DNA from: a virus
Direction: 5' to 3' (one strand)
Length of the DNA stretch: 64,000 bases
IMG/VR virus record: IMGVR_UViG_3300023296_001674
Shown: positions 2,557 through 57,513 of the stretch, one piece after another
Layout: each line of letters opens with the position of its first letter
How positions within the stretch are numbered: position 1 is the stretch's first letter
Position numbers and translations under genes: made by a program
The notes under the pieces: model-generated
Database searches by the model: none
What the model saw: only the letters and a program-made list of their open reading frames with translations
Told to the model about the DNA's origin: nothing

Positions 2557-3096
2557 TTATCGCATTTGTTTATGAATCAGTGAACCACCGTTTGGCTTAC
2601 GCTTACACTTAGGGTGATATCGATTTTCTGCGTTTGCAAGTTTACGCTGTCTTGGTATCACTGTGCCACAATCTTTGCATGTATATGTATGCTTTGCGAC
2701 TTTCTTGCGTATTTCGTTAAGAATGGTAGATGAACCACATCGTTTAACGTTCGTTATTCCAAGATCAAACATTATTACACGCCATTCTCTACCATGTGCA
2801 GCAATCTTTCTGCCATTGATATAAGAACCAAATCGTTCTTTGACGAGTATGTGTGCTGTTTCATGTAGCAGTGTGTTAATAAAATCATCCATTTCTTCTG
2901 GTTTCACTGCACCATGCAAATAATATTCGCTGGTTACTTCGACCAGTTTCTTGGAATACTTACAGCAACCAAAGCGATTCTTTGCACGCCAATTGATTGC
3001 GAATTTCCATTGTTCTAATGCATCAAAATCATCACCAGCCGCGTTTCTAACACGATCTAATAAATCGAATTTTTCAAGATATGTAAGAAGTTTCAT
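2557..3096 (-). CDS. SprT-like zinc metalloprotease-domain protein
   Basis: HETAH (HExxH) in LLHETAHILVKERFG, plus C-terminal CxxC...CKRK zinc-ribbon-like tail. Confidence 0.75.
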   Translation of the reverse strand: MKLLTYLEKFDLLDRVRNAAGDDFDALEQWKFAINWRAKNRFGCCKYSKKLVEVTSEYYLHGAVKPEEMDDFINTLLHETAHILVKERFGSYINGRKIAAHGREWRVIMFDLGITNVKRCGSSTILNEIRKKVAKHTYTCKDCGTVIPRQRKLANAENRYHPKCKRKPNGGSLIHKQMR

Positions 3097-5002: not shown

Positions 5003-6511
5003 ATGCAAATACCAGAAATCACACTTTCAACGCAGCAAGTTAATATTCTTGATTGGGTTAAATCAGGAAAAGGTAATGTCATTATCGAAGCTGTAGCTGG
5101 CAGTGGTAAGACCTTCACATTGGTTGAAGCCGTTAAGTTGATGGTAGGCACTGTATTCCTTGGTGCTTATAACTCTGCTATGGGTTATGAGTTGAAGGAA
5201 AAAACCAAGGGCATGAAAAATGTTCGGGCTGGCACGTTCCATAGTGCAGGCTTTGGCGCACTTCAATATCGTTACGGAAAAATGCAAGTTGATGCTAACA
5301 AAGTGCGAGATATCGTTAATGGTATGGCGGAGGGCGACGACTTGTTTGCTGTATACGGCAACTTCATTAACAAGATGGTAGCACTTGCCAAGGATTCCGG
5401 CATTGGGTTCTTTAATAAAATTAACGACCCTATCATGTGGAATGAACTTGTTGATAAGCACGACCTTATGGATCAACTCGACGAACACTTAACAGTTGAT
5501 GTTGGTATTCAGTTATCAATGGACGTCTTAAAGGCATCTAACTCTAATCTTAAAGTTATTGATTTTAGTGATATGATTTATCTTGTATTGTTAAACAACC
5601 TCCGCCTTTTCCAACAAGATTGGGTTTTGGTTGACGAAGCCCAAGATACCAATAGCACGCGACGCGCACTGGCAAAGAAAATGTTAAAACCCGGTGGGCG
5701 TTTGATCGCGGTTGGTGATCCTCGCCAAGCAATCTTTGGCTTCACTGGTGCTGATTCCGATGCGCTGGACTTGATCTCCAAGGACTTCGGTACAACGACG
5801 CTTCCTTTGACTAGCACGTTCCGTTGCCCTAAATCGGTTGTTAAACACGCCCAACAATGGGTATCACACATTGAAGCGTATGATACTAATATCGAAGGCG
5901 AAGTTATCAACGCTAAATTCGACGACGTGTTCGGTGAAAAATCCGAATATAAGTTTACCGGTTCCGATGCAATCATTTGCCGCCTTAACGCGCCTATCGT
6001 TGAACTTGCATTCAAGTTGATTCGTAAGGGTGTTCCTTGCCGCATTGAAGGTAGAGATATCGGCACACAACTTGCAGCACTTGCAAACAAGTGGAAAGTA
6101 GTCCGCCTTGACGCCTTACGCAATCGCCTTGAGAAGTATAAGGAACGTGAAGTATCTAAGGCTATGGCAAAAGGGCAAGAACAGAAAGCCGGTAGCATTA
6201 CTGACCGCGTGGGCTGCCTTAATGTTCTTATCGAACGCGCCGAAGAAAAGAAACTTGACGTTGCTGGTTTGATTGTAATGATCAAGGGCATGTTTTCAGA
6301 CGCCCAAGATAAAACCACAAATAAGAACATTTTGGTTTTATCATCCGTTCATAAATCAAAAGGTAAAGAATGGCCTAGAGTGTTCTTGTTAGGACGCCAA
6401 GAAAATATGCCAAGTCCTTTTGCTAGACAGACATGGCAACTTTTACAAGAGGATAACCTTATCTACGTTGCTGTAACGAGGGCGATGGAAACGTTAATCG
6501 AAGTGGATTAA
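5003..6511 (+). CDS. UvrD/Rep-type superfamily 1 DNA helicase
   Basis: Walker A AVAGSGKT, VLVDEAQD, VGDPRQAIFGFTGA, SVHKSKGKEW, IYVAVTRA. Promoter TTGACT 4949-4954 / TATACA. Confidence 0.9.
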   Translation: MQIPEITLSTQQVNILDWVKSGKGNVIIEAVAGSGKTFTLVEAVKLMVGTVFLGAYNSAMGYELKEKTKGMKNVRAGTFHSAGFGALQYRYGKMQVDANKVRDIVNGMAEGDDLFAVYGNFINKMVALAKDSGIGFFNKINDPIMWNELVDKHDLMDQLDEHLTVDVGIQLSMDVLKASNSNLKVIDFSDMIYLVLLNNLRLFQQDWVLVDEAQDTNSTRRALAKKMLKPGGRLIAVGDPRQAIFGFTGADSDALDLISKDFGTTTLPLTSTFRCPKSVVKHAQQWVSHIEAYDTNIEGEVINAKFDDVFGEKSEYKFTGSDAIICRLNAPIVELAFKLIRKGVPCRIEGRDIGTQLAALANKWKVVRLDALRNRLEKYKEREVSKAMAKGQEQKAGSITDRVGCLNVLIERAEEKKLDVAGLIVMIKGMFSDAQDKTTNKNILVLSSVHKSKGKEWPRVFLLGRQENMPSPFARQTWQLLQEDNLIYVAVTRAMETLIEVD

Positions 6512-10941: not shown

Positions 10942-11301
10942 ATGACTACAGCAGAAGTAATCCCTTTCGCCGTTCTTAAAGCCAAGATCGATGACCGTGA
11001 CATTACACCAGAAGCAATTGAAGAAGCATCGTTTTCACCCGAGGTTGAAGCTGATGTTTTGACAAATTTGCTGGTATCCGGTTTATACAAAGGCATGACG
11101 AATTCTGGCATTGACACCCTTTCGGATGTAAATCAAGAATTACTTGGTGTTATATATGAAATGGTTGGCGCGGTTGTTGATCGCAAATATAAATTGTTTA
11201 ATGAATTCAATGCAATACGTGATATTCAAGCCGAAAAGGGCGATGTTCAACTTGAAACAAATGTTTTTCTAAAACCAAAACAGGAGACAACTGATGCCTA
11301 A
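10942..11301 (+). CDS. Hypothetical protein
   Basis: Track ORF trimmed to ATG 10942 after AAAGGAA. Tandem promoters at 10818 and 10884. Confidence 0.65.
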   Translation: MTTAEVIPFAVLKAKIDDRDITPEAIEEASFSPEVEADVLTNLLVSGLYKGMTNSGIDTLSDVNQELLGVIYEMVGAVVDRKYKLFNEFNAIRDIQAEKGDVQLETNVFLKPKQETTDA

Positions 11302-11704
11302 AGCCGTAACGCAATATGAAACATTCGACGGAAAAGTATTCTCCGACGAAAATGCCGCTGAACAATGGGAACGCAATACAAATAAAGCAAACGCAATCAT
11401 ATCGATGTTTCCGAACAACGGTCATCTTTCATCTGGCGATTTCTATCAGTTATCAAGAGATTTGATTAGCACCGCGAGAATTAAACTTGCCGATGCTTTA
11501 ACTCGTGGCGGCTTCGATGACGAAATGATTAAAGCATTTCGTGATAATACCAGCGATGTAATCGGACGCTATCTCGACGACGGCGGTTCAACATATTATA
11601 AAGCATGGTGGTTATTTTCTTGTATTGACAATCAAGGGCGGATGTTCAATCAACCGTTCTTTGCCAATAATCCAAGAGAAATAAGAGATGAAGTTTCCTA
11701 TTGA
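11294..11704 (+). CDS. Hypothetical protein
   Basis: ORF track; 8-nt overlap with the previous gene. Confidence 0.7.
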   Translation: MPKAVTQYETFDGKVFSDENAAEQWERNTNKANAIISMFPNNGHLSSGDFYQLSRDLISTARIKLADALTRGGFDDEMIKAFRDNTSDVIGRYLDDGGSTYYKAWWLFSCIDNQGRMFNQPFFANNPREIRDEVSY

Positions 11705-12435
11705 TTCTTCCAATCATTTTCCCATATCGTGACAAGATTATAGCCGTGAGATTTAATAAGAGTCTCACGGTTCATAGTCTTTTGATATAACTCGCCGAAT
11801 GATTTTTTATTATTGGTGTTGATATGTTCGGGATTGTGTGTATTAGGATTCCCATGCCAATAATCACCATAGAACTCATATATGGTATTTGTGTCAGGGT
11901 CATAACCGTCTGGATATATCCATTGATTATTTAATATTAAAGTTCGTCGCCTATAATCATTTGTATCAGGTAATCCAATATGATCAAGCCACGATTTTTC
12001 CATATATGATTTATTCTGTATAGTTAATGGTCGCAACATAATGGCGCACTTATTACATCCATGATTTAAATGTGCTGATGGTTCTTGTTGAAATATTCCA
12101 TGTTCAGGGCAAATGATATTCACCTTTGTATGCGTGTTATGATAATCAACTAATGAATAATTATATTTATCGCCATGTTTTATCAACGATTTTTGTATAA
12201 ATTTTAATGTAGTTCCCCGTATTTTATCTGAATTATTTTTTATTGCACATTTAATACAGCCTTTTCCACTACTAGTGTGCGAACAAGGCGTCTGTTCAAA
12301 TATTCCATGAGTTGTGCATATTATTTTAACTTTGGTATGGGCGGCAATATATATAGACAATGAATAGTCATATCTATCACCATGAATGGCGATAGCATCT
12401 TGAATGAATTTTGAGGTAGTTTTTCTTCTTGACAT
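11698..12435 (-). CDS. Homing endonuclease, two Zn-ribbon repeats plus Vsr/PD-(D/E)XK-like nuclease domain
   Basis: MSRRKTTSKFIQDAIAIHGDRYDYSL...KVKIICTTHG...CIKC repeated twice, then DGYDPDTNTIYEFYGDYWHGNP. Lone minus-strand gene within a + strand gene array. Confidence 0.85.
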   Translation of the reverse strand: MSRRKTTSKFIQDAIAIHGDRYDYSLSIYIAAHTKVKIICTTHGIFEQTPCSHTSSGKGCIKCAIKNNSDKIRGTTLKFIQKSLIKHGDKYNYSLVDYHNTHTKVNIICPEHGIFQQEPSAHLNHGCNKCAIMLRPLTIQNKSYMEKSWLDHIGLPDTNDYRRRTLILNNQWIYPDGYDPDTNTIYEFYGDYWHGNPNTHNPEHINTNNKKSFGELYQKTMNRETLIKSHGYNLVTIWENDWKNQ

Positions 12436-12500
12436 GTGATATCCTTCCGGTTATAAATACATTGGCGGTAGGACTTACCTTCCGGTGTCCATGTGATACA
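12436..12500 (-). promoter_or_regulatory. Conserved homing-endonuclease 5' leader (copy 2)
   Basis: Minus-strand cacatggacaccggaaggtaagtcctaccgccaatgtatttataaccggaaggatatcacATG. Preceded by the 10-bp hairpin gtgatacata/tatgtatcac. Confidence 0.5.
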
Positions 12501-12616
12501 TACTTGAAATATGTATCACACCGCTCCTATCTATTTATCTTTTTTATTATTAAAACCCTTGACAATGATGGATGTTTGCTTTATATCTAAATCAACTTTA
12601 ATGAAAAGGAATTATT

Positions 12617-13462
12617 ATGAAACTCATAGCGATTAATGCAGATATCACCACGTTGGAAGTTGATTGTATCGTAAATGCATCTAATCCAGCACTAATGCAT
12701 GGCGGTGGGGTATGCGGTGCAATATTTGAAGCCAGTGGCGCAAATGAACTTGCGGGATTTATTGCGCAGAACTATGGGCTAGGATGCTTAACAGGGCAAG
12801 TAGTTGTGACTCCGGGGTTCAACCTACCGGCGAAGTTCATCTTGCACACTGTCGGGCCTGATATGCGCCTATATGCACAAGAAGCGGGTGATACATTGTT
12901 GCAGTTATGTTATATCAACTGTATTGAGGCGGCATTCGATGAAGGGTTGACTTCTATTGCCTTCCCTGCTATCAGTACTGGAATCTTTGGATTTGATAAA
13001 AAACGTGCTGCTACGATTGCAGTTACTACATTGATGGACTACAGTGGTAGCGAAGATATCGAAATTACCTTTGCTTGCTTTGGCGATGAAGATACCGCAA
13101 TAGTTCAAGCCGCGATTGATGATGAAGATGCATCACGGCATTATCTATCATGGTCAATGTATAATGAACAATACGATATTGATTCGGCGGCTGGAAAGTG
13201 TGACATTGAAGGCGATTGGGAAGTGTTATACGCTGACTTATCTACGGATGTTCCTACTGGCATTTACATGGTATCAACAACCTATGATGGCAACCTCGGT
13301 GTAGCGAAAGGCGTTGTTATCAATGATGGTGTATTCGATATCGACCAAACCCTACGCGCTTGTGCGGTTGCCCGTAACAATGCAGGATATTGGGGAACTT
13401 TTCTTGAAGGATTGGATTGGAATAGCGAAACCGAAGAATTTACAGCACACTTCGGTTCTTAA
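12617..13462 (+). CDS. Macrodomain protein (ADP-ribose binding/hydrolase fold) with ~115-aa C-terminal extension
   Basis: ADITTLEVDCIVNASNPALMHGGGVCGAIFEASG and AFPAISTGIFGF are macro motifs. Promoter TTGACA 12559-12564. Confidence 0.85.
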   Translation: MKLIAINADITTLEVDCIVNASNPALMHGGGVCGAIFEASGANELAGFIAQNYGLGCLTGQVVVTPGFNLPAKFILHTVGPDMRLYAQEAGDTLLQLCYINCIEAAFDEGLTSIAFPAISTGIFGFDKKRAATIAVTTLMDYSGSEDIEITFACFGDEDTAIVQAAIDDEDASRHYLSWSMYNEQYDIDSAAGKCDIEGDWEVLYADLSTDVPTGIYMVSTTYDGNLGVAKGVVINDGVFDIDQTLRACAVARNNAGYWGTFLEGLDWNSETEEFTAHFGS

Positions 13463-13520
13463 CACTTGACATCATCGATTAAGTGTTCTATGGTTCACTT
13501 AACAACGAAAGGATAATACA

Positions 13521-13763
13521 ATGTCGGAAATTCGCCACAAAGTAACATTCATGCATGAGGTAGATGGAAAAGACGAACCCTTGACCGTGATGTATGTTTA
13601 TCGTATTCCACAACTCAACGAAATTGTAGTTATGTTGGATTCGAAAATTCGATATCGGGTTCTTGAGGTTCTTAATATTATTGATGATCGAAACATCGAT
13701 TTTAAAAAAGATTATATAACGATGTGTGAAATCGAATATTTCATCAAAGTGTCTTGGAAATAA
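13521..13763 (+). CDS. Hypothetical protein
   Basis: ORF track. Promoter TTGACA 13466-13471 / TATGGT 13489-13494. Confidence 0.7.
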   Translation: MSEIRHKVTFMHEVDGKDEPLTVMYVYRIPQLNEIVVMLDSKIRYRVLEVLNIIDDRNIDFKKDYITMCEIEYFIKVSWK

Positions 13764-13808
13764 TATACAAAGCCTTGACTCTATTATCTAATAGTGTTAA
13801 ATAACATC

Positions 13809-14096
13809 ATGGAACTAAACGACCTCCCATCGGTTGCAGCAATGCACCAACACAAGAACCCCGATCAGAAACGGAATGAACGTCGTATGCAGGAATTTAT
13901 AACTGACGATATGATACACCCCGACGAGCCAGCACCACAACATAGGTCGCCTTCGTTGTTGAATGACACCGCCTCGACAGTTGTGTTCGAGGCTGGCATT
14001 GATACACCGCAAATGAGCCGCGATTGTATCATTGCTATATATGAAAAAATATTGGGTGGCAATCCAGAAACTGAACTTAAAAATCTTTTTGCTTGA
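13809..14096 (+). CDS. Hypothetical protein (possibly leaderless mRNA)
   Basis: Track ORF trimmed to ATG 13809. TTGACT-16-TTAAAT ends 6 nt before the ATG and there is no RBS. Confidence 0.55.
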   Translation: MELNDLPSVAAMHQHKNPDQKRNERRMQEFITDDMIHPDEPAPQHRSPSLLNDTASTVVFEAGIDTPQMSRDCIIAIYEKILGGNPETELKNLFA

Positions 14097-20482: not shown

Positions 20483-20507
20483 ACATCCATTAACATCCAT
20501 AAAATGC

Positions 20508-20554
20508 TCATCCCTCCCTATCATCACAATACGACCTAACTGTATCAAAGTCAA
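20508..20554 (-). promoter_or_regulatory. AGGGAGGGATGA-class promoter, copy F
   Basis: Minus strand: TTGACT (20554-20549), 17 nt, TATTGT (20531-20526), 6 nt, 12-mer 20519-20508. Confidence 0.55.
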
Positions 20555-20618
20555 CACTTATTTTTCACTTGACATATAATATTTTAATGGTATTATACTT
20601 ACAGAAAGGACAAAAATT

Positions 20619-27205: not shown

Positions 27206-27229
27206 CGCGCCAGCAATTCCAAAAAAAAG

Positions 27230-27277
27230 ACATCCCTCCCTATGGTGATATTAGCACTATTGCCCAAACAGAGTCAA
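27230..27277 (-). promoter_or_regulatory. AGGGAGGGATGA-class promoter, copy J (variant AGGGAGGGATGT)
   Basis: Minus strand: TTGACT (27277-27272), 18 nt, TAATAT (27253-27248), 6 nt, 12-mer 27241-27230. Confidence 0.55.
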
Positions 27278-27431
27278 CACTTATTTTCGCCCCCAAATTT
27301 CAGGCATCACCCAATCTTACCACGTTTTCGAATTACAAGTCAACCCCCTATTTTAATTCATTTAAGGGGTTGACTCTGTTTGGGTTGGGTAGTAATATCC
27401 CTTTATCAACTTAACAAAAGGAAACAAACAC

Positions 27432-27836: not shown

Positions 27837-27870
27837 AGAGTCAAGAGAAATCTTGACTTTTCTTTTTTTA
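27837..27870. terminator. Bidirectional terminator carrying TTGACT in its arm
   Basis: agtcaaga-gaaa-tcttgact (27839-27858), then a T-rich run. Confidence 0.75.
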
Positions 27871-27893
27871 TTTTTTCCGCCGCCAAAAAAAGG

Positions 27894-27939
27894 TCATCCC
27901 TCCCTACCACCATAATACACTATTCGAACAACGAGTCAA
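27894..27939 (-). promoter_or_regulatory. AGGGAGGGATGA-class promoter, copy K
   Basis: Minus strand: TTGACT (27939-27934), 16 nt, TATTAT (27917-27912), 6 nt, 12-mer 27905-27894. Confidence 0.6.
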
Positions 27940-27947
27940 GACTATAA

Positions 27948-31032: not shown

Positions 31033-31073
31033 TTGACTCTGGTGTAATTGATAAGTATAATTGATTACACCAG
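31033..31073 (+). promoter_or_regulatory. Stem-loop promoter
   Basis: TTGACT 31033-31038, 17 nt, TATAAT 31056-31061. Arms ctggtgtaat 31039-31048 and attacaccag 31064-31073. Confidence 0.7.
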
Positions 31074-31090
31074 AACAAAAGGAATTTAAC

Positions 31091-31672: not shown

Positions 31673-32593
31673 ATGGCAAAAGCAACCCGCACCAAAATCG
31701 ATCATGAGCAACAAATCACTAACGCTATTGTCGCCCACGTTGAAGGGTATATCGCCGCCGAGGCTACAGGCGAAGAGATCGCACGTTGGGAAAGCCCCTT
31801 CGGAAAATTCTTCCGTGAAGGCCATTTTTGCGCCGCAACCGATAACCAGTATAAAGGCTGGACTAACAATTTTTTCCTTACACTTATGGCGCACGCAAGC
31901 GGATTCAATTCCGATGCATGGGGAACATTCAAGCAATGGAAAAGCATGGGAACGGATGAAACACCCGTATCTGTTAAGCATGGTCAAAAAGGTTCCGCTT
32001 GGATTGCTTTTCCATATATCAACAAAGATAAAGTAACCGGCGACGACACCGTAACCGGATTCGGATATCGCGCCGTATTCAATGCCGATCAAATCGAAGG
32101 ATATACGCCCGAGGTTGTTGAACTACCAGAGTCGCAGGTTGTGCAACATGCCAAAGCTGAAACATTCTTGAAAAATCTGGACGTAACATTCCAGCATATC
32201 GGAAACCGCGCTTTCTATAGCCCTGCTAGTGATGCAATCAGCATGCCCCCAGAAGGCGCGTTTAAGGCGACTGAATACAGTACCGCAACCGAAGGCTACT
32301 ATGGCACCAAGTTTCATGAATACGCCCACGCAACCCTGCACGCTAGCCGGTGCAATCGCGAACAAGGCGCGGATAAAGCTTCATACGCTTTCGAAGAGTT
32401 GGTCGCCGAATTGACCTCGACTATCCTATGTTCGCGCTTTGGTATATCCGCACAACCACGCGAAGACCACGCTAAGTATATACATTCATGGTTGAAAGCA
32501 CTGAAAAGCGACAAGACCATGATTATGAAGGCAATGAAGAAAGCAAGCCAAGCAATCGCTTGGATGGATAAAAAGCAACCAACATCAAAATAA
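31673..32593 (+). CDS. ardC: ArdC-like protein: N-terminal ssDNA-binding (DUF1738-like) domain plus C-terminal zincin metalloprotease
   Basis: Trimmed to ATG 31673. YKGWTNNFFL...WGTFKQW, HEYAHATLH (HExxH), YAFEELVAELTSTILCSRFGI, AKYIHSWLKALKSD. Promoter TTGACT 31615-31620 / TATACT 31637-31642. Confidence 0.8.
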   Translation: MAKATRTKIDHEQQITNAIVAHVEGYIAAEATGEEIARWESPFGKFFREGHFCAATDNQYKGWTNNFFLTLMAHASGFNSDAWGTFKQWKSMGTDETPVSVKHGQKGSAWIAFPYINKDKVTGDDTVTGFGYRAVFNADQIEGYTPEVVELPESQVVQHAKAETFLKNLDVTFQHIGNRAFYSPASDAISMPPEGAFKATEYSTATEGYYGTKFHEYAHATLHASRCNREQGADKASYAFEELVAELTSTILCSRFGISAQPREDHAKYIHSWLKALKSDKTMIMKAMKKASQAIAWMDKKQPTSK

Positions 32594-32597
32594 AAGG

Positions 32598-32636
32598 TTG
32601 ACAGTAAGGATATGATATCGTATTATATCCTTACTG
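32598..32636 (+). promoter_or_regulatory. Stem-loop promoter (12-bp perfect arms)
   Basis: TTGACA 32598-32603, 17 nt, TATTAT 32621-32626. Arms cagtaaggatat 32602-32613 and atatccttactg 32625-32636. Confidence 0.7.
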
Positions 32637-32654
32637 AAACGAAAGGAACACACA

Positions 32655-32756
32655 ATGACACACGGTAACGGCAAGATCAGGCGATTCGCAGGCAATCTAG
32701 GGGCGCTAATGCTGGCAGCGCTGGCAGGCTACGCGACGCTGGTGGTCCTAGCATAA
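32655..32756 (+). CDS. Small membrane peptide (33 aa)
   Basis: Not in the ORF track. AAAGGAA RBS. MTHGNGKIRRFAGNLGALMLAALAGYATLVVLA. Confidence 0.5.
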   Translation: MTHGNGKIRRFAGNLGALMLAALAGYATLVVLA

Positions 32757-32959
32757 CGCCAGAACCGAGTCAAGCACTTATTTCACGGTGTTGCACTTAT
32801 GACACAGTCAAGTCTTTTATTATAAAATAAAAATAAAAAAAGACTTGACATTCGAAAAAAAGAGTGCTCGTGCAGTGTTTTGAAGTTTTTTATTTAATGG
32901 ATACCTTACCCTTAGCTCGAAATACGCCAAAATTTTTCAGGCTAAATCGGAACTCTGGC

Positions 32960-33053
32960 TATCGTGACACTTATCGTGACAAAATGTCGCGATACCATTA
33001 TAATGGGTCATTTATTCATCCTATCGTGACATTTGACCCATTATAATGGGTCA
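32960..33053. repeat. Iteron/palindrome block in the 380-bp noncoding boundary region
   Basis: TATCGTGACA at 32960, 32972 and 33022. Inverted TATCGCGACA at 32985-32994. CCATTATAATGGGTCA at 32995-33010 and 33038-33053. 18-bp perfect palindrome gacccattataatgggtc at 33035-33052. Confidence 0.85.
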
Positions 33054-33164
33054 ATACACCCCCCACCCCCTTTTCTATGAAACACTTATTCATTCAATAT
33101 AAAAAAAATTCTGCGCCAAAATTTTAATAAATAATATTAGGTTTTTAACATAGGAACATTTAAC

Positions 33165-33320
33165 ATGAAAACATTATCCGATAAACAACATGCTACCATT
33201 AAAGAGAACATGCGTGCTATTCCAAAAGCATCATATACAGACATTGATCGCACCGCAGTTCTTAAAGAAGAATATGCTGAATTTATAAAAAATATCAACG
33301 AAAGCGACAAACCAGAATAA
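33165..33320 (+). CDS. Small hypothetical protein (51 aa)
   Basis: Not in the ORF track. TAATAAATA motif 40 nt upstream. MKTLSDKQHATIKENMRAIPKASYTDIDR... Preferred over the antisense track ORF 33137-33379. Confidence 0.55.
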   Translation: MKTLSDKQHATIKENMRAIPKASYTDIDRTAVLKEEYAEFIKNINESDKPE

Positions 33321-33323
33321 ACA

Positions 33324-33755
33324 ATGAGAGCATCCGACTTCATCGCTGAAACACTTATATCTGTTTCGCACGGAACCAATACCGATTTTGATCAATTAGA
33401 TGTGGCAAAAACATCCGATGGTGGAATTCACTTTGGTTCCAATCAACAAGCAGCGTTACGATCAACTGGAAAAAATTCGCGCATCATCGATACACAAATT
33501 GATGTTAGAAAACCAAAACGTTGCAAAGACGATGGATCAGGATGGAAAAACAAAATAAAATCCGCCAAACGTTCTGGATATGACAGTATTGTATATTTGA
33601 ACCGTTATGAAAATATGACCACTGAACGAGTAGAACAGTTATCACAATCCGGCAAACTAGATACTTTGGATTCATTATCCGATGCCGCATTCAAAAAATT
33701 AGTTCCTGAAGCACAAGACAGTTATATTGTGTTCGACAACGATCAAATAAAATAG
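33324..33755 (+). CDS. Hypothetical protein; weak resemblance to ADP-ribosyltransferase-like domains of polyvalent proteins (speculative)
   Basis: ORF track. SHGTNTDFD...GIHFGSNQQAALR...YLNRYEN gives an H / S-Y / E spacing. First 15 nt are identical to the next gene. Confidence 0.6.
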   Translation: MRASDFIAETLISVSHGTNTDFDQLDVAKTSDGGIHFGSNQQAALRSTGKNSRIIDTQIDVRKPKRCKDDGSGWKNKIKSAKRSGYDSIVYLNRYENMTTERVEQLSQSGKLDTLDSLSDAAFKKLVPEAQDSYIVFDNDQIK

Positions 33756-33765
33756 GACACTTATC

Positions 33766-34152
33766 ATGAGAGCATCCGAAATCACAGAAACAACAACGTC
33801 TTTAAAATGGGCAACCCGCAACCCATCACCAAAAGATTATGAAATAGTTATGATCGACATTAAAGCACTTATGGATAATACCAATCGCATACAAAAAATT
33901 TCATTATCTGCTGTAACCAAAGCAGACGATGAAAACATTATAGGTGATCGCGTTTCAAGAGCAAAACAATTTTGGCTAGATGGTGGCGAAATGCGACTAT
34001 CAATGGTTGGATACAGTGATTATTCCAAGATGGTAGACTTCACCGACGGTAGACACCGCCTAATAGCCGCGTATCAACTTGGTGAACGCCATGCACCCGT
34101 ATTGGCAGACAAGGACGGCATAGAAGAATTTAAAGCGCTGGTAGGGGCTTAA
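33766..34152 (+). CDS. ParB-like nuclease-domain protein
   Basis: FTDGRHRLIAAYQLGE (DGxHR ParB/Srx motif). Confidence 0.65.
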   Translation: MRASEITETTTSLKWATRNPSPKDYEIVMIDIKALMDNTNRIQKISLSAVTKADDENIIGDRVSRAKQFWLDGGEMRLSMVGYSDYSKMVDFTDGRHRLIAAYQLGERHAPVLADKDGIEEFKALVGA

Positions 34153-39152: not shown

Positions 39153-39536
39153 ATGAAAAAATTATTATTAGCGGCAACACTTATGGTATTGCCATTTACT
39201 GCGATGGCAGAAGAACAAACAGTTGGAATGTCTGCTACATTTATGTGTAGAGTGGCATCAACAGTAGACGCGCATTTAACTAGATTGGGTTATACCAAAG
39301 GTGTTGAACTTGATGGATTAAATATGGGAACCATTATTATATGGTACGGAACAGAAAACGGCATCAAATCTTGGATGCTTACTGCGAATACACCCAATGG
39401 TTTAACTTGCAAATTAGATAATGGTTATGTTGATCTCAAAAACCCAACCGAAACTACTCCTGAATCGTCAAAACCAAAACTGGATGAAGAATCATTAAAG
39501 AAAATGATGGACAACGCGAAAAAAGACTCACTTTAA
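39153..39536 (+). CDS. Secreted protein (signal peptide)
   Basis: MKKLLLAATLMVLPFTAMA signal sequence. Confidence 0.75.
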   Translation: MKKLLLAATLMVLPFTAMAEEQTVGMSATFMCRVASTVDAHLTRLGYTKGVELDGLNMGTIIIWYGTENGIKSWMLTANTPNGLTCKLDNGYVDLKNPTETTPESSKPKLDEESLKKMMDNAKKDSL

Positions 39537-40207
39537 CATTTGATTATATAAATATAATTTGGAAAATTGACCGACTTCAATCTCCTTCTTACAGTTTCTT
39601 CGCCGAGTTTTAATATTTTTGCCGACTCGATGACTGATGAATATATAACGTCGTCTATTTTAACAGATTTTTTGCGATGATTATTTTCTGGATGTTTTCC
39701 ATATAACGGATGTTTATCACCGATTTTTCCATACATGCCATTTTTTTCACCAGAATTTTTTTCACTTATTTTTTGTTTAGTTTCATCTGTTCTTGGCACA
39801 CCGAATAATGGATTATTTTTTCCAGTTCTGCCCCACATTGGATTATTTTTTCCTTTCATTTTCTCTGCAAATTTAGGTCTTTTAACACCTGTTCTGTTGG
39901 GTGGTCTTCTATCAACGCAAATATTAGTAAGTATGCCATTTTTGTCATAACCATTTCGACCAAGTTTTTTAATCCACGTTTTTTCTAAATCATATGCATC
40001 CTTTTCTGGCATATTTTTTTCTATGAATTTAACACCAGGTTCTAATCCTTCTTTTCGTATCGCATTTATTTTATTCCATTTTTGTATATTTTCTGTTGTG
40101 TGTATAGTTTCCGTCAGATGTCTCTTCCATCGGTCTTTTGATCCTTTTCCTATATAAAATTCTATATTATCATGTCTTGGGTCTAGCAATGCGTATACGT
40201 AATACAT
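39533..40207 (-). CDS. GIY-YIG homing endonuclease with NUMOD3-like repeats
   Basis: YYVYALLDP...FYIGKGSKDRW (GIY-YIG). Repeated GKNNPMWGRTGKNNPLFG, GEKNGMYG, DKHPLYGK. Confidence 0.85.
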   Translation of the reverse strand: MYYVYALLDPRHDNIEFYIGKGSKDRWKRHLTETIHTTENIQKWNKINAIRKEGLEPGVKFIEKNMPEKDAYDLEKTWIKKLGRNGYDKNGILTNICVDRRPPNRTGVKRPKFAEKMKGKNNPMWGRTGKNNPLFGVPRTDETKQKISEKNSGEKNGMYGKIGDKHPLYGKHPENNHRKKSVKIDDVIYSSVIESAKILKLGEETVRRRLKSVNFPNYIYIIKC

Positions 40208-42655: not shown

Positions 42656-43045
42656 ATGAGTTTTAATAAAATCATCGACGATATTAAGATTAAGTATTTA
42701 ACGATGGACCCAAGCGTTGATCCAAAGAATAAAGAATCGCGCCGGAACTGGATATTATTCATGGCGAACAAGACACAACGGTTTCCTGTACGTCAGGTAT
42801 ATGATAGATTGATACCGTCTGTAACAAAGATGACAGTCAATACAGATATGAAATACCTTGAAGATCAAGGACTTATCAGGCGCGAGAAAGAAAGTGATGG
42901 AACATCGCATATCGTTCCATTGTTTGATGATTCAGGTGAAGCACCTGAACCAAAGCACGTCATATATAAAAGATGGGCGAAAAATGTAATATTACCACTT
43001 ATTGCCTTGACATTACTTGTCGTATTTGTTATTATCAGTGGTTGA
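42656..43045 (+). CDS. Winged-helix-like protein with C-terminal membrane anchor
   Basis: DMKYLEDQGLIRREKESDG is wHTH-like. C-terminal ILPLIALTLLVVFVIISG. Confidence 0.55.
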   Translation: MSFNKIIDDIKIKYLTMDPSVDPKNKESRRNWILFMANKTQRFPVRQVYDRLIPSVTKMTVNTDMKYLEDQGLIRREKESDGTSHIVPLFDDSGEAPEPKHVIYKRWAKNVILPLIALTLLVVFVIISG

Positions 43046-43065
43046 TATTAACGAGGAAAAAGAAT

Positions 43066-44858: not shown

Positions 44859-45330
44859 AATGAATGATATACAATTGAGTGGAAATTTTAAATTATCAGA
44901 GTTGGTTAAGTCAGATACGGCGGAAAGGTTAGATATTGATAACTGGCCCACAGACAATGATACTATTGAAGCGTTAAGGGTGACAGCAAACAGAATATTG
45001 CAGCCCGTCAGAATGAATTACGGTATTTCTTTTTCGCCTACTAGCGGGTTTCGTTGCTTAACCTTGAATAGAGCATTAAAATCGAAAGATACATCTGATC
45101 ATGTTTTAGGTAGAGCAGTAGATTTTGAAGTACCAGGAATACCAAATAAAGATTTGGCTGTGTGGATACGAGATAACCTATCTTTTGATCAGGTTATATT
45201 AGAATTTTGGGATGGGATAAATCCAAACTCTGGGTGGGTGCATTGTTCTTTTAGATCAGAAACTGAAAATAGAAATCAGTGTTTAACTATTAATAAAAAT
45301 GGCGTATTTAATGGATTTAGAGCAAATTAA
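44851..45330 (+). CDS. Peptidase M15-family cell-wall endopeptidase (probable endolysin)
   Basis: FKLSELVKSDTA...SGFRCLTLNRALKSKDTSDHVLGRAVDFEV (SxHxxGxAxD zinc site). Confidence 0.8.
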   Translation: MNKMNDIQLSGNFKLSELVKSDTAERLDIDNWPTDNDTIEALRVTANRILQPVRMNYGISFSPTSGFRCLTLNRALKSKDTSDHVLGRAVDFEVPGIPNKDLAVWIRDNLSFDQVILEFWDGINPNSGWVHCSFRSETENRNQCLTINKNGVFNGFRAN

Positions 45331-46024
45331 ACAAGAAATTTATTATTTATATGAAATTGAAAATATTATCAATGGAAAGAAATATATCGGATATACTAAT
45401 AATCCAAGACTTCGCCAAAAAGCACATTTTGTTTGGAAAAATAGTGGGTCTATATTGGTTGAACATGCTATTAAAAAATATGGATTAGATTCATTGCGGT
45501 TTAAAATACTTGTTAAATCAGACAATGAAGTATATATTAAAGATTTAGAAATTGCAGCCATTAGCTCTCTTAATACCAAAGCACCACAAGGGTATAATTT
45601 AACTGATGGCGGCGAAGGAACTCGTGGTTTGACATTATCTGATAATCAAAAAGCAGATAGAAGTAAAAACATGAAAGGTAAAATGATTGGTGAGAAAAAT
45701 CCCTTTTATGGAAAGAAACATGATCCAGAAACTCTAAAAAGAATGGTAGAAACTAGAAGAAAAAATGGATCATATGTTGCGTGGAATAAAGGCGGCGGAC
45801 ATAAATTAAGTGCTAAAAGTCGCAAAAGTCTCCGTGAAAACAGACCTGTTGGCGGGACAAAAAATCCAAACGCCAAGTTGACGGAAGAAAAAGTACGAGA
45901 AATATATAATCTAAAAGGACAAATGACTGGTGAAAAGGTCGTCATGTTCTTAGGTTTGAATGTATCTGGTGAGACCGTTAGACGTATATGGAATAGAACT
46001 ACATGGTCGAGTTTAGTATATTAA
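45299..46024 (+). CDS. GIY-YIG homing endonuclease with NUMOD3-like repeat
   Basis: IYYLYEIENIINGKKYIGYTNNPRLRQKAH (GIY-YIG), GEKNPFYGKKH. Overlaps the endolysin 3' end by 32 nt. Confidence 0.85.
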   Translation: MAYLMDLEQIKQEIYYLYEIENIINGKKYIGYTNNPRLRQKAHFVWKNSGSILVEHAIKKYGLDSLRFKILVKSDNEVYIKDLEIAAISSLNTKAPQGYNLTDGGEGTRGLTLSDNQKADRSKNMKGKMIGEKNPFYGKKHDPETLKRMVETRRKNGSYVAWNKGGGHKLSAKSRKSLRENRPVGGTKNPNAKLTEEKVREIYNLKGQMTGEKVVMFLGLNVSGETVRRIWNRTTWSSLVY

Positions 46025-54902: not shown

Positions 54903-55565
54903 ATGAGTTTTAATAATAGACCAGATAGACCTATAGAATCATCCATTTACCTACGATTGGTAACTGAAGGCGAAATGAGAAAAAACACAATAAAATCATT
55001 TTACTCTACTGTTAAAGAAAACGCACCGGAAAATGTATTAAGTCATTACGATGTTCAAGACCCTGATGGAAATCCTGCTACAACGTTGTTATTACATCGC
55101 GTTAATGAAGACAATAAGCATGAATACGAAATACCATTGGTTAGAAACCTTACACCAGATGAAATATACGAAGTAGCATTAAATCTTAACACTAAATTAA
55201 ATGAAGGTGATTTTTTATTAGAATCGAGTTCATTTGACGATGATTGCTGCCTTACGGAAGATGATGATCCATCTGAATATATGGAAGCAGACGTTTTTGA
55301 ACGATTTGCAGAGAAATTATCTGAGCGCATGCATAATGTATGGTATAAAGAACGCGAAGATGCTGGCTGGAGATTTGGTACACAGCGCCTCGAAGAAGAA
55401 AAAACACACCCATTAATGAAACCATGGAATCAATTAACCGAAGAAGATAAACAAATAGACTATTCATTGCCTGAATTTTTTATTGATTTGTTAGAAGAAT
55501 TTGGGTATGCAGTTGTAAGTCATGATGAATTAGATGGATTTTCAGAAGAAATATCTAAAAAATAA
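54903..55565 (+). CDS. RyR (ryanodine-receptor-type) domain protein
   Basis: FAEKLSERMHNVWYKEREDAGWRFGTQRLEEEKTHPLMKPWNQLTEEDKQIDYS matches the RyR domain pattern. Confidence 0.7.
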   Translation: MSFNNRPDRPIESSIYLRLVTEGEMRKNTIKSFYSTVKENAPENVLSHYDVQDPDGNPATTLLLHRVNEDNKHEYEIPLVRNLTPDEIYEVALNLNTKLNEGDFLLESSSFDDDCCLTEDDDPSEYMEADVFERFAEKLSERMHNVWYKEREDAGWRFGTQRLEEEKTHPLMKPWNQLTEEDKQIDYSLPEFFIDLLEEFGYAVVSHDELDGFSEEISKK

Positions 55566-56661: not shown

Positions 56662-57513
56662 ATGTATAACACAAGAATAGCGCCATCACCAACGGGTGAT
56701 ATGCACCTTGGTACTGCTAGAACCGCTTATCATAATTTTTTGATGGCAAGGGCGTCCGGTGGAAAATTTATATTGCGCATCGACGATACTGATGCTGCAC
56801 GCAGTAAACAGTCGCACGTCGACGTCATCCTTGAAACTATGGATTGGTTGGGTTTAGACTACGACGAAATCGTTTATCAAAGTGATAGAAATGATCGTTA
56901 TATGGAAGTAATCAAACAGATGGATGCAGATGATCTTGTTTGCGAGTTAGACAATGGTGCATTTGGCACATTCATCGAAAGGGTTCCTGATGAATGGACA
57001 GATGAAATTGCTGGTGATATTATAGTGTCAGAGACCGATAGTGATATTAGTTCTAGTCTTATATTAATGAAAAGTGATGGAACTCCTACTTATCATTTTG
57101 CATCAGTAATAGATGATATGGATTTCAATATTAATTATATTATCAGAGGACACGATCATATATCTAATACACCAAAGCAACTCAATATTATGAACAACCT
57201 TGGTATGGTCATACCTAAGTTCGCACACGTGGGTCTTATTCACAAAGACGGTAAGAAATTATCTAAACGTGACGGCGCAGCAAGTATGTTGCACTATCGC
57301 GATCAAGGATATGACCCTGATGCAATGCTCAATTTTTTATTGAATCTTGGGTGGGCACCAACAAATCAAGGCAAGCAACATAAAATAATAGATCGTGATT
57401 TTGCTCTAGAGATTTTTATCAATGGTGGAAAATTGCGCAATCAATCAGCAAATATGGATTTAGCATTACTAGATTCATACAATAAAAAGTATAAGTATAT
57501 CAAGAGGAAATAA
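56662..57513 (+). CDS. Truncated glutamyl-tRNA-synthetase-like enzyme (catalytic core only; GluQRS-type architecture)
   Basis: RIAPSPTGDMHLGTARTA (HIGH-type), FILRIDDTD, DGTPTYHFASVIDD, IIRGHDHISNTPKQ, KLSKR (KMSKS-type). 283 aa, so no anticodon-binding domain. Confidence 0.85.
   Translation: MYNTRIAPSPTGDMHLGTARTAYHNFLMARASGGKFILRIDDTDAARSKQSHVDVILETMDWLGLDYDEIVYQSDRNDRYMEVIKQMDADDLVCELDNGAFGTFIERVPDEWTDEIAGDIIVSETDSDISSSLILMKSDGTPTYHFASVIDDMDFNINYIIRGHDHISNTPKQLNIMNNLGMVIPKFAHVGLIHKDGKKLSKRDGAASMLHYRDQGYDPDAMLNFLLNLGWAPTNQGKQHKIIDRDFALEIFINGGKLRNQSANMDLALLDSYNKKYKYIKRK

Follow-up and report, generated by a model that had tools for sequence, protein, structure and literature searches.

What does a gene-free block do at the point where viral DNA changes both its base composition and the way its genes are organized? 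This question is raised by a 64,000-nucleotide stretch of IMG/VR virus record IMGVR_UViG_3300023296_001674 (the window), in which positions 32758-33164 contain no credible open reading frame (ORF). This block of about 400 bp separates a left domain, made mostly of small plus-strand genes behind near-consensus sigma-70 promoters, from a right domain in which both strands are used, and GC content drops across it from 0.42-0.45 to 0.32-0.36. An initial annotation, made from the letters alone, had described the stretch as gene-free and as lying at a domain boundary with a change in base composition, and both descriptions hold; it had offered a replication origin, operators for a dimeric regulator, or a packaging or genome-end site as possible functions. 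We recovered every feature that it had listed, at or within 1-2 bases of where it had placed them, and our results support the view that a real border between two genome domains is occupied here by a genuine cis-acting block present in one copy. Judging from the sequence, our leading but tentative reading is that the block controls transcription, as a promoter-operator region, where early genes give way to late ones in a phage-like genome.

Repeats and palindromes over a predicted promoter, P1

The block contains a predicted sigma-70-type promoter, which we denote P1 and which matches the consensus at 11 of 12 positions with a 17-bp spacer. It lies 160 nt upstream of the first right-domain ORF and, from an inferred start near 33011, reads into the operon at 33165-34152; in total the window holds about 23 near-consensus promoters of this kind, mostly just upstream of ORFs. 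Promoters of the sigma-54, sigma-32 and Bacteroidetes types were compared by eye and gave no fit. Direct copy 2 of the 10-mer TATCGTGACA coincides with the -35 element of P1, an inverted copy occupies the spacer and palindrome 1 holds the -10 element, placing one dyad (copy 2 with the inverted copy) over the -35 and spacer and another over the -10; copy 3 and palindrome 2 follow just downstream (Table 1). The repeats and palindromes thus overlap every core promoter element as well as the initially transcribed region, which is the geometry of a repressor and its operators. Among the functions first suggested, operators for a dimeric regulator therefore fit best.

All three direct copies of TATCGTGACA and the inverted one are present as annotated, the latter (TATCGCGACA on the minus strand) with one mismatch; together with copy 2 it forms a 23-bp near-palindrome. 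Counting the inverted copy, the 10-mers are spaced by 12, 13 and 37 bp, and the direct copies alone start 12 and 50 bp apart. At no more than one mismatch, TATCGTGACA has 8 matches on both strands of the whole window against 5.4 expected, and 4 of the 8 fall inside 72 bp. The second motif, CCATTATAATGGGTCA, occurs at 32995 and 33038, the two copies that had been annotated, and elsewhere in the window only with three or more mismatches; the palindrome around the second copy, previously given as 18 bp, is in fact perfect over 22 bp. It follows palindrome 1 by 43 bp, which is about four helical turns and so would put both palindromes on the same face of the helix, and as RNA it would form a 9-bp hairpin. 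A search for further copies of TATCGTGACA and CCATTATAATGGGTCA, which the initial annotation had called for, returned only chance-level near-matches in the rest of the window. That both motifs are confined to the block within 64 kb points to specific sites rather than a general promoter motif. The repeats, palindromes, hairpin and C-tract are all unique to this place in the window, and lie far above chance.

On this arrangement, the strong host-type promoter P1 would drive the first right-domain operon (a 51-aa ORF, ART-PolyVal and a 128-aa protein). The two palindromes may be bound cooperatively by a dimeric DNA-binding protein, and the 10-mers by another factor specific to the lineage. The bound factors would jointly occlude P1 and stop readthrough from the early domain, with later expression then starting from the AATAAATA promoter that closes the block on its right side.

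Such a layout resembles the lambda OR/OL, P22 and 434 operators in several respects: palindromes lie over the -10 and early transcribed region of a sigma-70 promoter; two like sites stand an integral number of helical turns apart, suggesting cooperative dimer binding; and the region is unique in its genome, at a switch between expression programmes. The block differs in having neither a flanking repressor- or Cro-like gene nor divergent promoters, in interleaving direct 10-mers with its palindromes, and in that the strong promoter is not conserved in a relative (see below). Its genome, moreover, is that of a very large, apparently virulent-type phage and not a lambdoid one.

Table 1. Features of the block, its promoters and its flanking transcription units (window coordinates).
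Feature	Position	Strand	Remarks
Flanking sigma-70-type promoter of a tiny ORF, TTGACA-17-TATTAT	32598-32626	+	Embedded 16-nt inverted repeat, 32602-32617/32621-32636
Last left-domain gene, 33-aa hydrophobic peptide	32656-32757	+	L047 counterpart of 40 aa, 10991-11113
Two 16-mers with GCACTTAT inside	32774-32808	+	Starts 32774 and 32793; repeat search
Hairpin- or cruciform-capable inverted repeat, GTCAAGTCTTTT...AAAAGACTTGAC	32807-32849	.	Arms 32807-32823 and 32833-32849; A/T-only core 32815-32841
Conserved non-coding element 1: TGCTCGTGYAGTG, AATGGWTWCCTT, CTTAGYTC, ATACG, T-run	32865-32942	+	Window, L047, L023
TATCGTGACA direct copy 1	32960-32969	+	About -51 to -42 from the inferred P1 start
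TATCGTGACA direct copy 2	32972-32981	+	Includes the P1 -35 hexamer GTGACA
P1, sigma-70-type promoter, GTGACA-17-TATAAT	32976-33004	+	Promoter scan
Inverted copy of the 10-mer	32985-32994	-	Inside the P1 spacer
Palindrome 1 (CCATTATAATGG core + GTCA)	32995-33010	.	Holds the P1 -10
TATCGTGACA direct copy 3	33022-33031	+	About +12 to +21
Palindrome 2, perfect, TTGACCCATTATAATGGGTCAA	33033-33054	.	TTATAA centre; about +23 to +44
C6AC5T4 tract, homopyrimidine mirror repeat	33059-33074	+	C6AC5 at 33059-33070, TTTT at 33071-33074; directly 3' of a hairpin
A8 run + TTCTGCGCCAAAATTTT	33101-33125	+	Kept in L047 and L023
AATAAATA late-type motif	33126-33133	+	31 nt before the ATG at 33165
(T)AATAAATA copies	33126, 37557, 40252, 44632, 46033, 48583, 50990	+	Motif search
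First right-domain operon	33165-34152	+	51-aa ORF, ART-PolyVal (33324-33755), 128-aa protein (33766-34152)

Conservation of the block among relatives

Conservation was assessed among the window and two related sequences, L047 and L023; a further contig, L048, is identical to L047 across the block and 99.7% identical overall. L047 carries an ArdC homologue of 72% aa identity and is collinear with the window to the left and to the right of the block. In the corresponding position, behind ArdC and a 40-aa peptide, it has a gene-free block of 445 bp with the same GC step. Alignment and motif search showed that L047 shares the island GCACTTA with the window, and it keeps the GTCAAG/CTTGAC arms and A/T core of the hairpin (11141-11183) and element 1 (TGCTCGTGYAGTG, then AATGGWTWCCTT, CTTAGYTC and a T-run). 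It also has two palindromes with a CCATTAnAnTGG core, CCATTACAATGG and CCATTATAGTGG, whose cores at 11326 and 11369 are exactly 43 bp apart, as in the window; the counterpart of palindrome 1 is TACCATTACAATGGAA (11324-11339). Both L047 palindromes are imperfect, and both retain the TAnnnT hexamer (TACAAT, TATAGT). The C-tract CCCCACCCCCTTTT is identical over 14 nt in all three sequences and directly follows the second palindrome in the window and L047. Conserved as well is an A-run followed by TTTCGCCGCCAAWTTTT, which reads A7TTTCGCCGCCAAWTTTT in L047 and begins with an A6 run in L023. A constant 43-bp spacing and a 14-nt identical C-tract at about 30% nucleotide divergence imply selection on the sequence itself.

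The second relative, L023, is a 1.3-kb contig with an ART homologue of 73% identity. Retained in it are element 1, the CGCC element, a short hairpin with CCCCACCCCCTTTT behind it and, at the position of AATAAATA, ATAAATA; the palindromes are absent, and a divergent 61-aa gene is inserted between element 1 and the C-tract leader, which is compatible with these parts being separable transcription signals. The first gene after the block is different in each of the three genomes (the 51-aa ORF in the window, ART in L023, a response-regulator-like gene in L047). Since the downstream genes differ while the islands persist, the block is conserved as non-coding sequence in its own right, with separable parts. 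The initial annotation had held that repeats absent or unconserved in relatives would speak against a functional site. On this point the outcome is divided: the palindrome pair, hairpin and C-tract are kept, and the TATCGTGACA repeats are not, L047 having two copies of TCTGGTCAT at the equivalent position and L023 none.

Coding and RNA functions were considered and rejected. The sole ORF in the block (32864-33046, GTG start, 60 aa) is broken in L047, where codon 4 of the homologous sequence is a stop, and micro-ORFs lack a ribosome-binding site or are unconserved. A small RNA or riboswitch finds no Rfam match better than E=0.7 and no conserved fold; element 1 likewise has no ORF and no conserved RNA fold on either strand (consensus about -2 kcal/mol).

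Sampling beyond these sequences added little. A window-identical contig was recovered by exact-protein look-up (L021/L022). Three ART homologues of 69-73% identity lie on short contigs and only L023 shares part of the block, the upstream regions of L024 and L025 being unrelated to it; distant ART and ArdC homologues sit in plasmid-like contexts from which the block is absent. DNA and motif searches of public phage, plasmid and IMG/VR collections found no close relatives, and for the flanking proteins only distant relatives or none were found. When metagenome and genome collections were scanned for the pattern of the C-tract leader, only non-homologous matches came up, and a palindrome-pair scan of IMG/VR gave unrelated tandem repeats only, one of its matches being flanked by ORFs with SAP and DnaJ domains, more typical of eukaryote-infecting viruses.

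Within 596 Gb of genomes, the pattern CCCCACCCCCTTTT-N(26-44)-GCCAAWWTTTT has a single match, at 7249-7312 of L051 (an Acetobacteraceae metagenome-assembled genome, CBDAPZ010000001.1). Its surroundings are a GC-rich intergenic region within an element bearing integrase and helix-turn-helix (HTH) genes, and it shows no other homology; with a rough expectation of about 0.1 under uniform base composition, it is probably a chance match.

The persistence of islands between changing genes also raises the question of whether the block is simply a mosaic boundary or linker, with no dedicated function past ordinary promoters and terminators, its islands being recombination joints for module exchange. 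Genes on both sides do vary among the window, L047 and L023; the left domain is rich in multi-copy promoter and terminator cassettes common to the genomes; and the block itself includes copies of these generic cassettes (GTCAAGCACTTATTT, AAAGACTTGACA, TAATAAATAATA). The palindromes, C-tract, element 1 and CGCC element, however, occur once in 64 kb, and the exact spacing and the identical C-tract imply selection, as noted above. We consider such a linker rather improbable.

The C-tract enters into a further proposal: that the hairpin and the C-rich, G-poor tract form a Rho-dependent (Rho utilization, or rut-like) terminator or a roadblock that insulates the late domain from early transcription, with element 1 and the hairpin acting in antitermination like boxA and boxB of a lambda nut site. 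The C-rich tract that had been annotated is indeed there (Table 1). In all three genomes a hairpin directly precedes C4-6AC5U4, its sequence differing in L023, and the tract opens a stretch of about 80 nt in which C exceeds G and G is scarce. The 80 nt from 33017 contain 26 C and 7 G, the third highest C-minus-G value in 64 kb, and the L047 equivalent is among the top five there. We also found no classical intrinsic terminator between the transcript that begins at 32598 and the right domain. Set against this, other intergenic regions of the left domain are equally richer in C than G, owing to G-rich elements on the other strand; the likeness to boxA does not extend beyond TGCTC; we identified no antitermination protein resembling N or Q; and what is kept in the palindromes is their sequence and not just their pairing, which points to recognition at the DNA level. 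The U-run stands 11-16 nt from the stem, so this is no classical intrinsic terminator, and neither is the A/T-core hairpin, which has no U-run behind it. We hold a stop or antitermination signal to be unlikely; it could coexist with a promoter-operator region.

Palindromes of this kind can also be targets of recombinases, and the unit in the window looks like one arm plus the core of telRL, the telomere-resolution (protelomerase) site of phage N15, whose sequence we verified at NC_001901 24775-24830. Window ACATTTGACCCATTATA aligns with ACAATTG-CCCATTATA of telRL (a 16/17 local match, a score matched by 8 of 2000 shuffles), CCATTATA/TATAATGG is also a half-site of N15 telO, and telRL too lies between two oppositely organised genome arms. 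Yet the comparison was made post hoc, and the corresponding L047 score is not significant (115 of 2000 shuffles). The block has no central CGCGCG cleavage core and, instead of one long dyad of 56 bp, two tandem copies with a 22-bp dyad, imperfect in L047; Pfam searches of the window gave no protelomerase (Telomere_res) or integrase/recombinase-like match. A telomere-resolution or other recombinase target is thus extremely unlikely. Two other possibilities were set aside. A conjugative oriT or leading region, suggested by ArdC beside the block and genes pointing at it, goes with no relaxase or type IV secretion system gene, and fibre-like and homing-endonuclease genes are present. A centromere like F sopC, suggested by the coincidence of a 43-bp repeat, would have only two copies and no par genes.

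Several points also weigh against our preferred promoter-operator reading. No DNA-binding protein (HTH, ribbon-helix-helix or other) was found by Pfam beside the block or among the window ORFs, most of which are unannotated, and the structure prediction for the neighbouring, conserved 128-aa protein has a predicted local distance difference test (pLDDT) score of 49 and is unusable. By manual inspection, the L047 palindromes have no usable -35 element, and a canonical TTGACA promoter stands downstream of that block, so the conserved role of the palindromes may not be promoter control of the P1 kind. The model also gives no account of element 1, the A/T-core hairpin or the C5-6AC5T4 tract, all of them conserved. 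Finally, the comparison comprises only three related sequences (L048 matching L047 exactly across the block), too few for covariation statistics.

The variable region to the right of the L047 block (11559-14006) encodes two receiver-domain (Response_reg) proteins and one Sigma70_r4-domain protein that are absent from the window; these are candidate regulators.

Promoter types at the domain border, and possible roles in replication or DNA entry

The same proteins as in the window were found on a contig of 570,750 bp, and the window appears to belong to a very large phage (at least 570 kb). Its genes include a UvrD-type helicase, HNH and GIY-YIG homing endonucleases, Macro, SprT-like and Dam proteins, a truncated class-I aminoacyl-tRNA-synthetase-like protein, a carbamoyltransferase and fibre-like proteins. 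The left domain, whose last two genes encode an ArdC-like protein (31673-32593) and a hydrophobic peptide of 33 aa, looks like a set of early, host-takeover and anti-defence genes. The right domain has both sigma-70 promoters and AATAAATA motifs, together with fibre-like and other later-type genes. Plus-strand GC skew is slightly negative over the last 6-9 kb of the left domain, despite its plus-strand genes.

The (T)AATAAATA motif divides the two domains. Its copies lie 23-34 nt upstream of plus-strand starts in seven of seven cases, all in the right domain, the first being the one that ends the block; the 33 kb of the left domain contain none on either strand. The same restriction is seen in L047, where (T)AATAAATA occurs just upstream of called gene starts only to the right of the block (12465, 15712, 19776, 20204). 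In phage T4, the late promoter consists of TATAAATA at -10, with no -35 element. Like it, the window motif stands at a short fixed distance before gene starts and goes without a -35; it differs in its first base, A and not T, a one-base difference from TATAAATA. A gp55 or gp33 homologue did not turn up in the window, where none was searched for. This comparison is context and separate from the repeat block itself. The distribution of the motif suggests a phage-specific late or middle transcription system, and the "two domains" of the initial annotation are most plausibly an early-type expression domain and a middle/late-type one.

Together with the 11/12 match of P1, the homologous L047 block with the same palindrome spacing and C-tract, and the absence of origin-type features described below, this restriction is consistent with a promoter-operator control region. 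If that is what it is, the block marks the switch from host-polymerase early genes to the phage's own late-type programme in a very large uncultivated phage lineage, and the early genes before the switch include ArdC-, Macro- and ADP-ribosyltransferase-type anti-defence candidates. The two CCATTAnAnTGG cores at 43 bp and the C5-6AC5T4 tract would then provide a concrete, conserved DNA bait for the regulator. If it is only a regulated promoter, this is ordinary biology in a new lineage.

The initial annotation had seen in the repeats and AT-rich tract the signature of a replication origin. In such an origin the A/T-core hairpin would be the unwinding element, the repeats and palindromes initiator sites, and P1 a possible means of transcriptional activation as at T7 and T4 origins. 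The hairpin is as it had been described (12 perfect outer bp, with a 27-bp core of A/T only); folded as a single DNA strand it reaches -12 kcal/mol (z = -6.6; 0 of 200 shuffles equal or better). This A/T-core inverted repeat, also kept in L047, is the one conserved origin-like feature. An origin would further agree with a conserved non-coding block that occurs once, with the clustering of direct and inverted repeats, with a strong promoter followed by an AT-rich stretch, and with variable repeats beside conserved sites, the expected look of co-evolving initiator sites. A local minimum of cumulative GC skew lies 2-3 kb off in both genomes (about 36 kb in the window, about 13.5 kb in L047).

The repeats themselves, however, are 10 bp long, irregularly spaced and lineage-specific, rather than 17-22-mers phased at a spacing of about 21-23 bp. 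None of the three blocks contains an exact DnaA box (TTWTNCACA), the IHF consensus WATCAANNNNTTR or a GATC site, and DnaA-like matches with one mismatch occur at background rate. No initiator, primase or helicase-loader gene was detected adjacent to the block or elsewhere in the window, the only helicase being 27 kb off. To the left and right of the block alike, GC skew is negative, with no sign change, and it tracks gene class; strongly positive values start 2-3 kb to the right of the block, where late-type genes begin. These values cover 64 kb out of a genome of 570 kb or more. In L023 the inserted gene splits the block, which argues against a compact machine of fixed geometry, and the P1 transcript is C-rich, unfavourable for R-loop priming. 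Iteron origins (lambda ori, oriR of phage P1, pSC101, RK2 oriV) share with the block an AT-rich segment, direct repeats and a promoter-overlapping inverted repeat within a few hundred bp; the differences are the short, unconserved repeats, the lack of DnaA and IHF sites and of an adjacent rep gene, the splitting by a gene, and the distance of about 120 bp between repeats and A/T-only run, runs of similar length being found elsewhere in the window. The origin claim therefore does not stand up well, and we give it a low probability.

The block could instead be a signal of the physical genome, namely the edge of a long terminal repeat, a site for concatemer processing or packaging of the pac type, or an injection stop like that of T5, dividing an early domain that enters first from the rest. 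The left domain, mostly plus-strand, dense in sigma-70 promoters and with anti-defence-type genes (ArdC, Macro, SprT-like, HNH), resembles the T5 pre-early and SPO1 host-takeover regions, which lie in terminal repeats, and the GC step is conserved. The low-coverage L048 contig, from a second sample, ends 42 bp past the block (L047 coordinate 11600), although this break may reflect strain variation in the variable region to the right of the block; a physical or coverage discontinuity is the other possible cause. Contigs L021, L047 and L023, on the other hand, read straight through the block, and no terminase, which a pac or cos site would call for, and no A1/A2-like gene was detected in the window. 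Injection-stop (iss) regions of T5-like phages measure 1.2-1.6 kb and contain eight paired DnaA boxes (Davison, bioRxiv 10.1101/866236). Like the iss in Repeat Region 3 of the T5 left terminal repeat, the block ends a promoter-dense early domain with poorly conserved genes; unlike all T5-like injection-stop regions, it has no DnaA boxes, and it is only 0.4 kb long. A genome-end, packaging or injection-stop signal is accordingly an unlikely explanation.

One specific form of this idea, drawn by analogy with T5, supposes a phage of 570 kb or more whose early domain enters first or is terminally repeated, and makes the block the cis-acting border of that domain, with the palindrome pair, mirror C-tract and A/T-core cruciform in place of DnaA boxes; this is very unlikely. 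Were it true, genome entry or concatemer processing would be staged at the block. To our knowledge, no such entry or terminal-redundancy signals have been described in giant phages, and the block is where staged DNA entry or terminal redundancy would most obviously be looked for in them.

Neighbouring transcription units and other observations

The promoter of the tiny ORF that precedes the block has a counterpart at the same place in L047 (10932-10970), where the embedded inverted repeat is of unrelated sequence (AGGGGGATTGT/ACAATCCCCCT). Roughly 5 of the 23 strong sigma-70 promoters have an inverted repeat of 9-13 bp running from just past the -35 to about +10, with sequences that are all different (32598-32636, 31033-31075, 2553-2510 on the minus strand, 354-395 and 43007-43050, besides the L047 example). 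Between the last left-domain gene and the hairpin, the motif GTCAA[CG]CACTTATTT is a recurrent intergenic motif of the left domain, found in the upstream region and -35 of back-to-back promoters; one copy is kept in L047 (11118).

Intergenic regions of the left domain also contain an antisense cassette, composed of AAAATAAGTG, TTGACT, a spacer of 16-18 nt, a -10 element and AGGGAGGGATG, which opens a mini-ORF. It occurs on the minus strand at 20495-20560, 27225-27290 and 27868-27945, and in L047 at about 5494-5608. The cassette, with its mini-ORFs (MTFFWRRKK*, MSFFWNCW..., MSILWML...), is directed back into the terminator of the upstream plus-strand gene.

Anti-defence-type genes both flank the block and lie within the early domain. 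The ArdC-like protein at 31673-32593 combines ArdcN and MPTase-PolyVal domains, ART-PolyVal lies at 33324-33755, and Macro-domain and SprT-like genes are found at 12617-13462 and 2557-3096, respectively. ART homologues of 52-58% identity (loci L034-L040) are carried by plasmid-like contigs with MobI, ParM-like and MqsRA genes, a context that suggests exchange with the leading regions of plasmids. The window has homing-endonuclease-like genes at 1853-2503, 39533-40207 and 45299-46024, of which one is HNH and two are GIY-YIG with NUMOD3. The truncated class-I aminoacyl-tRNA-synthetase catalytic-domain protein (tRNA-synt_1c) is encoded at 56662-57513, and an RyR-domain protein at 54903-55565.

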